This document shows positions 1-64,000 of a stretch of 64,000 bases of DNA, piece by piece. The DNA comes from Amoebophrya sp. A120 (Eukaryota; Protista; Dinoflagellata). The stretch lies in contig CAJINV010000004.1 of assembly GCA_905178155.1 (NCBI GenBank), positions 5,330,258 through 5,394,257 on the forward strand, given 5' to 3'. How positions within the stretch are numbered: position 1 is the first letter of the stretch; each line of letters starts with the position of its first letter. Position numbers and translations under genes: made by a program. Under the pieces are notes generated by a model. That model made no database searches. It was not told the origin of the DNA and was given only the letters and a program-made list of their open reading frames with translations.

Positions 1-3000
1 TAACGTAGTGGAGCGCCCCGTCGCGAAACTCTGCGGCCCAAAACTGCCTGGAGAGGCCTCCGCGTTGCAGCTTCTATCCACTGCAAATATGTCATGTCTG
101 GGTCCTCTGGAAGATTGCAAGGTTTGTCATGCAGGTCTCGCATGGCCCATGAGGTCTTGAATGCAGGGCCTTGCATAACAAATTCTGCAGTGAGGTCTCT
201 ATCCTCCGTATCTTCCTGCATGAGAAACTCCCTCTCCACTTGCACTTGGTCGAAGCAAGGTCGGAAGCTTTTGCTAATCACGCTGACGAAACACAGATTT
301 TTGAATGATTCAGATTCAGCATGACAAGTTGCAGTGTTCCAGATCCAGACATATATACATTTGATAGGTTCAAACACACACTGATGTCCGAGGCGATTAT
401 ATTGGTCCCGGACCCCCATCGTATGCAAGAAAAAAGCTGTGATGTAGGTGTAACTCTGTAATGCAGAAAATGCAAGAGAGTTACGCCTGTCATGCCAGAC
501 AGCCACGCAGTCCTCTTCCCATGTGTGTTAGTTTTCCCTTACAAGCCACGCATGACAGGATTTTTGTTTCATGTAGAGCAACTCTGTGATGCTGTCAGCC
601 AAAGAAAGTTACACTAACACAGTTTTTTTTCTTGGGTACCTCGAGAGGAAAAATCGTACTCCGGTCTCAGCAACACCTGCGCCGCTGTGACCCAAGCGGC
701 GCCCGAGAATGTGGCAGACAGAGCTCGCACCGAGACAAGCGTGCCGACCATAGGCTCGGCTAGCAGGTTGCAGTCGCTCATGCGGTAGTAAACGAAGTCC
801 GGGTTGACGGAAGGCGTGCAGCCATCCTGAAAAAGCCAACACTCGCCGTTGCTTCCTATTGAATGTAAAAACGTCGTGGCTCCCACCCTGGACTCAAGTT
901 CTTGGAAACTTAGCAACACAAATGGTCCAAAAGCTTTGGAAGTAACGCATGGCGCATCACAAATTCTGTCAATCTTATACTTTTTATACTTATTAATACA
1001 GCATTACAAATTCCAAAACACGACGTAGAAATGTCGCTCATGCTCATGGGGATGCGCATTACAAACGTTCGCGTACCTGTACATGCAAATCTGCCTGACA
1101 AGAACTATGGGCGGGCGGGAACGTCTTTACTGAGGATAGTTCTCGTGAAAAACCCACCGCAATTTGGGGTGTTCGCGCACTGGTAGCGGCACTCGGCGAC
1201 GCTGTAAACCCGATCGTTGTAATAAATGCCCGACCCGAGCTGCTTGTCGTTCATATTCGCGCAGGCGCCCTGGAAGGTGGAGGGGCAGGAGGTCCCATCG
1301 ACGCGGGGCACGTACGCCTTACACTTTGCCTGGTTTTGCGCCATACTCCAGTGCTGCCATCCTGCCGCCGAGGATTGCGTACAGCCGTCCACAAAGTACA
1401 TAGCCTGCGCCTGCCCGTTGTTCTGGTTGCGAAACATCGCCACGCAGTTGTTGTCGTAGCCGCGGCCCCGACAAAACAGGTCGTAGTCGGTAATCTTGGT
1501 GTTGGCAACATTGGTCTGGTCCACCGTGGCAATGTCACTACCCGCGATCGCGAGGGAGTTAAATTCGTTGCACGCCCCGCCCCACACCGCGGGGCAAACG
1601 CGGCCCTTCAGCTGACACTGATTTAAGGAGTATTTTCTCCACCACGGCCCAATCCACCACGTGCAGCCCGAAGAGAGAAGATCGCACGTACTGCCTGCGC
1701 CTGTGCCGACAATGAAGTCCGCGCAACCATCCGTCATCGCGCACAGATACCGGCACTCCTCCTTCGAGTAAGGTCGGTCTGAGAAGAGACCGACCCTTTT
1801 GTCCTGCCATTGGCCGCAGCCACTTGTCATTCGGATTACGGGGTGTGGAGCGAAAGTGCGAAGACGAACCACACAGAAAAGACTCACTACCAGTCGGGAA
1901 CAATATCCAAAGGGATGCAGTTGGTCTCTCAAATAGGGATAGCCGGAAGGTTGAGGCTAGTCCCCAATTACTGCGCAGATTCTTAGCATTCACGGTATGC
2001 AATATAACTCAAGGCCTGTACGTATTCTTTCAGAGGGTGTCTTGGGTAAGTCTTCCACCCTGCTGGTTTTAAGGTCGTCCTGCTTCTTGTCCCGACCACC
2101 CCCAGAGCGGTGGCCGTGAAACAGCTTCGCACTAGTTCCGGGATCATTTAGGTCATTGGCTTCCTTGTGTTTCCTTCAGGATCTCTCTCAAGATTGTAAA
2201 GCTCATTTATTGGATCACTGGACAGGAGTGAAGCTACGCTGCGAATGGTTCGTCATTTATTTGCCATGGTCCCCCTCACTCCTGGCAATGTCCATACTAA
2301 CAGATAAAACGGAGTAGGTCGCTATCGGTTGCAGGTGCTTTGATATAAAAGAAACAAGCAGAATGAGTTTGCAGCGAGTAGCTGAAACCTGTAAAATTTT
2401 CGCCAAGTAAAGCTGTCTTAGTTTGCTTGCTCAAGGCCTTCAAAATATCTCCATCTCCGTCATCGAATCATCCTTCTCGACCTCCGTCCCCCTGTCGGGA
2501 CTTGTCCACTAGCATCCCCGTCGCTCTGTGTTCGTTTTCAATTATCCAGCACGACGATGTTGCTGAGTTTCAGGAATTCATAAAATTCGATTGCGGGGCA
2601 AACTTTAGTCAATCCATTCGGTCGATTGACTTTCGCACTGTGGTGGAGGGGTTTGATGCACTCGCGTAGAGTCAGGTCTTTGATTAATGCATGTCTGACG
2701 TCCCAATGTTTCAGTTGAGACTACGCACCACATGAACCTTGGCTGTAAGTAATCGCAGAACTGTTATCGCGTGCAAGGGTAATTGGAAGCAATAAGCTCT
2801 GGCTAATAAAATACTGACGCCACCAAGTTCGCAGCGAATCCAATACATAGTAGAAACGCGCAGCCATTTTGCTCGCTTCGCTCATGCCATATAATTCGGC
2901 TTCGCTGACGCTTGTAGATACTGAATGCTGAGGCACACTGCGCCAAGCAATTGCGCAACCGTTCAAGGTGATGACTACACCGAAGTTGGATTTTCGGTCC

Positions 3001-62520: not shown

Positions 62521-64000
62521 TTAAATTCTGACTTGCCTTGGCGCGCCGAGCGGGCCGCCTCCACTGCCGGCGTTGCCTTCCATGACGCCGTTGCGGATTT
62601 GGTCAGCGATGCTGGTCATCCCCGCGGGCCCGTGGGGCATGAAAATCGTCGTTGCGGTCCCCTGGGCCATCTTTTCGAGCGTGTCGAAAAACTTATCCAC
62701 TGCAATTATGTCTGGGCCAGGGAGATTGCCAGATTTGTCATGCTAGTCTGGCATGACTCTGGAATCTGTATTGCGTGGCAGCCCGCAGTTTGTTCTCATG
62801 CGAAATATAATGCCAACACAGAACCATGAACAAAGTTGTGATGCTTGGTGGCGCCTTACAGTGCGTTTATCATTCAGTGACTTGCACCACAACTTTCCAG
62901 ACCCAGATATATTTGCATTTGATAAAACTGGGTGAGCAGCAGGAGCTCGGTGACTTTCTCCGGACTCGCGTGGCCGTCCTGAAGCAGTGTCCTGAGTAAA
63001 AACGTCCCCGCCCCAGAGTCAAGAAGATGGAGATTTTGCAACACAAACCTAGAAGCTTTGTTAGTCACGCATGACAAGTTGCAGCGCGTAGTGTAGTGCA
63101 GGTTACCAAGGACAGCCGCATTACAAATCCAATTGTCTTGTTTTACAGCATTACAAATTCCAAAACACGATTGGAAATGCCTGTCATGGCGCTGCGCTTG
63201 TCATTGCAAATCTGCATGACAACTCTGGGGTGGGACCGTTTTTACACGGGATAAGCAGCAGAGATGCTTTCAGCCCCTCCACGATGGCGGCCCGCTGCTT
63301 GGCTATACCCTGCCCCTGCAAAAACTTGGACTCCGCCTCCGCTTCCGCGGCTTTCACCTGGGGGTGATACAACACGTCGGGGAGGCACAGCTAGTACCAG
63401 AATGAAGGACTAGGACGACGACATTGTTATTTATAACAAGGACCATGTTGCGTCACTTTTCCATCTTCTCTTTTTTAAACGAAGGCAAAACAGATGAAAA
63501 CCACGTACTTCTAATCAATACTTGTATGATCTTATCCGCCTCTGCCTTGTCCGCGGCCGCGAGCCTGAGCCGCTTATTCGCGTTGATTTGGTTCATGGCG
63601 TCCTTCACCTTTCCGTCTGGATTCACGTCGACCACGAGAGCGGAGTGGATCTGAAACCCGAACTCGGTCATTTTCGACTCCAAGTCCTGCTGCACCTGCA
63701 CGGCCAGTTCGTCCTTCGCGGCAAAAACTTCATCCAACGTCATTTTCGGGACGCAGGACCGGATGTATGGATTGCAAATATGTCTGGGTCTGGAAACTTG
63801 TAATGCTAAAAGTGAATGATAGGCGCGCCACAATACGCAGCTATGCATGACAAATTTTGTGGCTGCCATGTCTTACGTACTCCGCATGATAAACTGCCTT
63901 TTCGCATGACAGATAGGAGGGCTCTTTCTTGCCTATGCAACACAGATTCTCGAGTCATGCCAGACTAGCATGACAAACTTGCATTCTTCCAGACCCAGAC
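62521..64000 (-). CDS. Gene 5 (5'-partial): SPFH/band-7 domain protein, HIR-like
   Basis: Spliced peptide [21 protein letters not shown]...[55 protein letters not shown]...[17 protein letters not shown] at 62521. Confidence 0.9.
62694..62924. mobile_element. Introner A38
   Basis: A TIR; DR AAACT; removal restores TQFFDTL. Confidence 0.9.
62988..63253. mobile_element. Introner B11
   Basis: B TIR (left end TGT); DR AGCAG. Confidence 0.9.
63358..63521 (-). other. Canonical GT-AG intron in gene 5
   Basis: CAA|GTATTG...CCCCCAG|GTG restores KIIQVKAAE. Confidence 0.9.
63766..64000. mobile_element. Introner A39 (runs off window)
   Basis: A TIR; close copy of A2/A5. Confidence 0.9.

Follow-up and report, generated by a model that had tools for sequence, protein, structure and literature searches.

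Among described systems, those closest to the elements considered here are the introner elements of the marine parasite Amoebophrya sp. A120, a strain in which more than 60% of introns are non-canonical and in which introners are defined by inverted repeats accompanied by direct repeats of 3-5 nt, according to the portions of the original report drawn on here (PMC7789003). The same portions give the motif of the inverted repeats as TAT, seven variable bases and AAA (Farhat et al. 2021, PMC7789003), describe RNA-seq support for removal without GT-AG borders, and record the inverted repeat/direct repeat (IR/DR) layout in 15% of canonical A120 introns as well. A further report (Gozashti et al. 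2025, PMC12130899), again as far as its cited parts extend, lists 58 A120 families, most of them classed as terminal inverted repeat DNA elements of unknown superfamily; other Amoebophrya strains are stated to use GT-AG (PMC12005148). In the current study, a stretch of DNA of 64,000 nt (hereafter the window) was analysed computationally, and the elements interrupting its genes are almost certainly the known introners of strain A120. The elements and their unusual splicing have thus already been published, and what is added here is the register in which they are cut.

The published A120 introners resemble the window elements in their TAT+7 nt+AAA inverted repeats, direct repeats of 3-5 nt, length of approximately 240-260 nt, lack of a transposase and division into many families (PMC7789003, PMC12130899), and there is no difference in kind between the two. 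The published inverted repeats measure 8-20, as opposed to 25-30 bp here, the duplication in the window is uniformly 5 bp, and whereas the published splice sites are described as variable with an unknown border (PMC7789003), a single fixed register is proposed below.

Other intron systems, as described in the cited parts of their sources, are less close. Nonconventional introns of euglenids (PMC11282704) share duplication-like repeats, terminal repeats whose pairing draws the two ends close to each other, and an origin like that of miniature inverted-repeat transposable elements (MITEs), but differ in forming circular products, in their pyrimidine-to-purine junction bias and in a conserved CAG/CTG pairing. 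Introns of Fritillaria borealis (PMC11282704; bioRxiv 10.1101/2025.08.15.670264) are likewise transposon-derived, carry terminal repeats and duplications and are not GT-AG; they keep a preference for AG-AC or AG-AT ends, however, tied to divergent U2AF and to methylation of small nuclear RNA (snRNA), whereas the end dinucleotides of the window elements are unconstrained except for U at +2. The introners of Micromonas and Aureococcus (PMC11282704, PMC7789003) are also MITE-like introns that spread by transposition with target duplications, yet they supply or co-opt canonical splice sites.

Identity and anatomy of the window elements

An exon of gene 5, which encodes an SPFH protein, is 100% identical over 81 aa to Amoebophrya sp. 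A120 protein P0001 (next match 79%), and a comparison by eye showed the P0001 C-terminus to agree with the spliced product of gene 5 across two elements and a canonical intron. The published A120 motif is present exactly at 114 of 162 element ends, with motif positions 1-3 conserved in 157-158 and positions 11-13 in 136-147 of these ends. Because the exon is identical to an A120 protein and the ends carry the A120 motif, the phenomenon must be considered already known; the initial annotation had stated that introners are reported from Amoebophrya, which is correct, although the elements are not merely similar to these but appear to be the A120 introners themselves. The same ends were found in 149 loci (L001-L149), all in one other public assembly, where copies are up to 98% identical to those of the window and, among 298 elements identified solely by their inverted repeats, 231 are flanked by a perfect 5-bp duplication.

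Elements were called by an anchored inverted-end search, followed by a BLAST comparison of these copies with the masked window and a check of leftover frame breaks, which yielded 81 complete elements and one truncated copy (63768-64000); a candidate at 19525-19653 belongs to another repeat and was discarded before counting. The complete elements have a median length of 262 nt (range 145-1948), carry inverted repeats of 25-30 bp with exact TAT...ATA ends in 68 cases, and, in total, elements occupy 37% of the window. The flanking 5-bp duplication is perfect in 57, matches at 4/5 positions in 14, 3/5 in seven, 2/5 in two and 0/5 in one, such that 71 of 81 reach 4/5 or better. When duplication lengths were compared over 78 elements, 5 nt gave a perfect match in 57 and the other lengths from 2 to 9 fitted between 0 and 5. 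Since the score of the main caller included the duplication, the search was repeated on inverted repeats alone as a control, and 41 of the 55 elements called in this way had perfect 5-bp duplications, with no calls in any of 20 order-3 Markov shuffles.

The copies fall into eight multi-member groups (36, 11, 4, 4, 4, 4, 3 and 2) and 13 singletons, are up to 96% identical within families, and are inserted both along and against the direction of the genes, at a ratio of 22:14 for the two orientations within the main family. The initial annotation had put the number at about 82 elements of approximately ten families with long terminal inverted repeats and TAT...ATA ends, a description that the present census matches closely, and its figure of 57 perfect duplications among 81 was reproduced exactly. 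Judged from the sequence, the elements are probably mobile, because families reach 96% identity, the duplications are uniformly 5 bp and the positions in the paralogous genes 2 and 3 mostly differ. In 164 coding elements with assigned orientation (75 of the window and 89 of the other loci), the duplicated bases match the codon-position background. For 66 of 79 short elements, folding predicts that the inner stem pairs with a probability above 0.5. The longest open reading frame (ORF) inside any element is 164 aa and no transposase was found within the elements, the three ORFs of a 1.9-kb composite being without Pfam match; Rfam models gave no match at gathering score, and the element-end pattern gave none in viral contigs. 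No autonomous partner with the same ends is present within the window, and the longest bounded elements of the 149 other loci, in L042, L043, L061, L069 and L072, measure 481-1031 nt.

Probable removal from transcripts and proposed register of the cut

Removal of all 81 elements, each together with 5 nt, produces coding sequences (CDSs) of exactly 8583, 8250 and 3036 nt for genes 2, 3 and 4, all on the minus strand and each ending in one terminal stop. In an analysis of 78 elements the same operation gave ORFs of 2657 and 2300 aa spanning 22 and 17 elements, while removal offsets other than 2, 5 and 8 gave a longest ORF of at most 772 aa. The element+5 lengths are evenly spread modulo 3 (25, 26 and 30), so that 56 of the 81 would shift the frame if retained.

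Contigs of two sequencing runs were compared over 37900-57800, namely X3, whose status as RNA is a guess, and X1, whose type is not on record but which is probably DNA. X3 record 9 (gene 3) covers 39188-47648 in 5119 nt, which equals the exact removal of 12 elements, each with 5 nt, and X3 record 12 (gene 4) covers 55486-57800 in 1371 nt, equal to the exact removal of four in the same manner. X1 contigs contain five elements whole (38901, 40516, 44128, 54997 and 55321) with no differences, at a depth of 36-45 across whole elements versus 38-46 in pieces without a whole element. The X3 records project to gene-sized spans (one 53422-62014, one ending at 37273), and their projected ends lie 670-830 nt beyond stop codons, which is transcript-like. 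As X3 contigs lack 16 elements and X1 contigs hold five intact, RNA splicing is favoured over DNA excision, and removal at the RNA level is highly likely. Two raw-read RNA runs of 2026 (X9 and X10) gave 218 and seven matching reads, nearly all partial, indicating another strain.

Across six possible registers, GT-AG borders occur in one of 78 elements, or in four if GC/GA donors are allowed. Nearby canonical sites were also considered as the true junctions and rejected: a GT...AG pair of exactly element+5 length lies within approximately 15-20 nt in only three of 81 elements, and although a frame-preserving canonical pair is found near 43 of 81, the X3 lengths equal element+5 exactly. Much of the initial annotation is upheld by these data. 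The CDS lengths that it gave as divisible by 3 (8583, 8250 and 3036 nt) were recovered, with the addition that gene 2 also requires excision of a GT-AG intron at 19212-20345; the paralog peptides LPITRVQVF and GTWLSKL reappear upon removal; and the precise non-GT-AG removal that it described is seen in the exact lengths of the probable RNA contigs, which fit element+5 and not the nearby GT-AG sites that it had named as a possibility to be looked for. The register analysis that follows lends support to its notion of removal defined by geometry. Among its three mechanisms, programmed DNA excision is disfavoured by the X1 and X3 contigs, leaving an altered spliceosome and non-spliceosomal RNA excision.

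Where the duplication is perfect the cut is unplaceable, and it is imperfect duplications that allow it to be placed. In all five imperfect duplications visible in X3 (four of them displayed on one side only) the transcript-upstream copy is kept, through position 3 at 46069, 57168 and 38901 and through position 4 at 50825 and 55321. For position 5, on which 857, 23393, 24072, 43400, 49074, 51974, 54997, 60043 and 60858 bear in this window, alternative residues were scored by comparison with homologous repeats of proteins encoded in the window itself, which reflects paralog conservation only; database searches found no homologs of the exons of genes 2 and 3, and annotated A120 proteins were thus unusable for this purpose. 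The downstream base is favoured at 24072 (C versus R; homologs CCC, an invariant Cys), 43400 (S versus G; five S), 49074 (S versus G; SS) and 857 (S versus T). We consider it probable, on this basis, that the cut is fixed as N-TAT...ATA-NNNN, with 1 nt ahead of the 5' TAT and 4 nt beyond the 3' ATA leaving together with the element, which constitutes a modest refinement of the published work resting on few junctions.

Several observations weigh against this register or the RNA-level removal on which it builds. Position 5 at 54997 favours the upstream base and that at 23393 is a tie, the upper bound of the register being set by paralog conservation (four for, one against, one tie); a cut lying earlier is favoured at 26741 and at position 1 of 857; and among the 23 imperfect coding junctions six are silent and six lack a homolog residue. 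The contigs derive from one probable RNA sample (X3) and one probable DNA sample (X1, perhaps the source of the assembly), and only two X3 junctions are displayed on both sides, the others being deduced either from length sums or from a single visible edge.

No statement of a fixed register was found in the literature searched, although figures S19-S25 of Farhat et al. may bear on it; a figure legend in that report describes the sites as variable and the border as unknown, though the running text places four bases of the repeat ahead of the 5' end (PMC7789003). In the large A120 families (the first 20 of 58 rows of the published list), annotated GT starts and AG ends amount to approximately 25-30% each (PMC12130899), which is close to the frequency of G adjoining TAT and ATA and would be expected from aligners sliding inside the duplication; the published variability of splice sites may in part have this origin. 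Table S4 of Farhat et al., in which all nine top A120 motifs have T as the second base (PMC7789003), was set aside as support for the register because such sliding yields an identical pattern. If the fixed register is true, part of the reported splice-dinucleotide diversity is an alignment effect, element-bearing A120 genes acquire an exact annotation rule, and the positions of branch points or circle junctions, as well as the bases required in a minigene, become predictable.

Possible spliceosomal and other routes of excision

The overall account, to which we assign an even chance, is that A120 introners are likely non-autonomous transposons with a 5-bp target duplication, which are likely cut from pre-mRNA at a fixed hairpin offset, probably by a modified spliceosome. 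Each element would insert as a non-autonomous transposon and thereby create the duplication; its inverted repeats of 25-30 bp would then pair in the transcript, and a cut in the proposed register would remove exactly one copy of the duplication and render the insertion silent. In a relaxed GU-A donor, the U of position +2 and the A of position +3 would come from the element itself; this donor would be used by a spliceosome with relaxed requirements for the terminal G and AG, the acceptor being set by its distance from the stem. A very tentative candidate for the branch point is the first A of the terminal ATA, which lies 7 nt from the 3' cut. U+2 and A+3 would be read by U6. Among 169 oriented elements, these first two terminal bases are changed twice at the 5' end, compared with ten changes at their mirror positions at the 3' end (p 0.04, post hoc). 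The cited portion of the A120 genome report finds U2, U4, U5, U6 and most spliceosomal proteins present and U1 snRNA not found (PMC7789003), and that on Fritillaria describes spliceosomal handling of non-GT/AG introns (bioRxiv 10.1101/2025.08.15.670264). Given these snRNAs, this precedent and the lower 5' variation at U+2/A+3, spliceosomal catalysis is somewhat favoured.

Spliceosomal recognition is nonetheless opposed by a number of results. G at +1 is found in 59 of 164 oriented coding elements against 54 expected (p 0.22), AG at the 3' end in 13 of 164, and the stem would conceal the donor; mismatches in the arms are equally G-U (113) and A-C (120), giving no sign of selection for RNA pairing. 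Selection for G at +1, suggested by the 75 window elements (p 0.03), was unrepeated in the 89 others and was dismissed on the pooled value given above.

Some of these results would suit non-spliceosomal RNA excision, which we regard as a serious though less probable rival, and in which an endonuclease would measure from the base of the terminal helix and cut 1 nt and 4 nt outside it before a ligase joined the exons. Such a process would explain the lack of any GT or AG preference, removal irrespective of element orientation and ends that are predicted to pair even over 1.9 kb, and it accords with the missing U1 snRNA (PMC7789003) and with euglenid introns, for which the cited part of the source reports circles and no lariats (PMC11282704); it is less readily reconciled with the weak 5' asymmetry for U+2/A+3, with the IR/DR layout in 15% of canonical A120 introns (PMC7789003) or with arms that show no G-U excess. 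In its most far-reaching form, which is put forward only tentatively, tens of thousands of A120 introns would be removed by a non-spliceosomal ruler that cuts exactly 1 nt outside the terminal RNA helix on its 5' side and 4 nt outside it on its 3' side. These distances would match the 5-bp stagger with which the mobilising enzyme cuts, and any insertion, in either orientation, would be erased from mRNA. Such a ruler, if real, would give an alveolate a second system for splicing mRNA and provide a rule for seamless, sequence-independent intron design. To our knowledge there is no candidate enzyme for excision by nuclease and ligase.

Removal from RNA with a loose register, the cut falling anywhere inside the duplication as the legend of Farhat et al. 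implies, is improbable. Three junction positions contradict the fixed register by paralog score and the published splice sites are diverse in the cited parts of both reports (PMC7789003, PMC12130899), but at all five probable-RNA junctions the upstream copy is retained up to position 3 or 4, and the annotated GT and AG frequencies are explicable by aligner sliding. Programmed DNA excision in some life stage, followed by transcription of an element-free template, is very unlikely in spite of transposon-like ends and a 5-bp duplication that suit DNA cut-and-join, and of the fact that the life stages of X1 and X3 are not given and contigs drop rare variants, as X1 contigs retain elements at full depth, X3 records project to gene-sized spans, and a register polarised along the gene whatever the element orientation suits a transcript, though all genes lie on one strand.

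Host genes, composite elements and neighbouring repeats

All five genes lie on the minus strand, and those between 15916 and 61607 are tandem members of one family, encoding large repeat proteins that are rich in Cys, contain Thr-rich linkers and are possibly adhesins; for gene 2 only a weak PAN match was obtained (Pfam, E 0.008). Gene 2 (15916-36496; CDS 8583 nt) is 50% identical to gene 3 and holds 31 elements, at 15963-16274, 16315-16565, 16760-17065, 17136-17400, 17462-17718, 17809-18059, 18242-18465, 18576-18791, 18941-19128, 20881-21203, 21369-21629, 21784-22954, 23076-23330, 23393-23622, 23862-24032 and 24072-24324, and further at 24426-24700, 24922-25243, 25411-25682, 25998-26289, 26741-27049, 27096-27357, 27661-27947, 28251-28503, 28557-28835, 29464-29742, 30998-31245, 31444-31705, 31791-32001, 32068-32343 and 32408-34355. 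The predicted GT-AG intron that is additionally needed to restore its frame (19212-20345, 1134 nt) is situated within a tandem duplication of approximately 38 nt containing AG|GT and is filled with inverted and tandem repeats, and its sequence points to a possible intron gain by duplication.

Gene 3 (37943-52760; CDS 8250 nt, ATG at 52576) has 24 coding elements, at 38043-38304, 38354-38611, 38901-39188, 40516-40797, 41097-41362, 41743-42048, 42128-42380, 42430-42652, 42711-42975, 43046-43333, 43400-43653, 43780-44041, 44128-44439, 45087-45395, 46069-46330, 47697-47841, 47903-48058, 48703-48985, 49074-49379, 49708-49949, 50025-50286, 50825-51103, 51974-52212 and 52262-52523, and one upstream of the ATG (52611-52760). 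Gene 4 (54254-61909; CDS 3036 nt, ATG at 61607) has 17 coding elements, at 54319-54597, 54676-54926, 54997-55261, 55321-55485, 56099-56350, 56564-56783, 56861-57103, 57168-57376, 58267-58545, 58661-58830, 59036-59259, 59419-59681, 59751-59959, 60043-60304, 60440-60789, 60858-61180 and 61253-61521, with a further one upstream of the ATG (61631-61909) and another downstream of the stop, probably in the 3' untranslated region (53759-54012). Gene 5 (62521-64000), an SPFH/Band 7 protein (Pfam PF01145, E 5e-12), contains elements at 62694-62924 and 62988-63253, the truncated copy at 63768-64000 and a canonical GT-AG intron at 63358-63521.

Gene 1 (1-1830) is a 3'-truncated paralog with elements at 75-366, 422-638 and 857-1138, and its frame is stop-free once these are removed. 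It appears to be split from its 5' part, near 11800-12480, by a Copia-like long terminal repeat retroelement (approximately 1870-11800, minus strand) with broken frames and weak RVT_2, rve and zf-CCHC matches below Pfam cut-offs. The terminal repeats of this retroelement lie at 2005-2263/11542-11796 and 1912-2010/9113-9211, one of them harbouring a 2.3-kb insert (9212-11541) of 17- and 18-bp tandem satellites, similar to a satellite in locus L018. An element at 12505-12825, located upstream of this displaced 5' segment, has 5-bp flanks that match in inverted (4/5) but not in direct orientation (0/5).

Two of the gene 2 elements are composite. That of 1948 nt (32408-34355) has main-family ends, still predicted by folding to pair, and a perfect duplication around a 1.67-kb insert (32452-34150), which itself comes with a 16-bp duplication and suggests a retro-type insertion nested in an introner. 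The other (21784-22954) contains a nested insert and an assembly gap, retains a perfect duplication and restores the frame upon removal. Genes 2 and 3, with 31 and 24 elements, respectively, share a single codon position, where members of different families (24426-24700 and 41743-42048) occupy the same aligned codon in the same phase, a coincidence with a rough chance of approximately 0.1.

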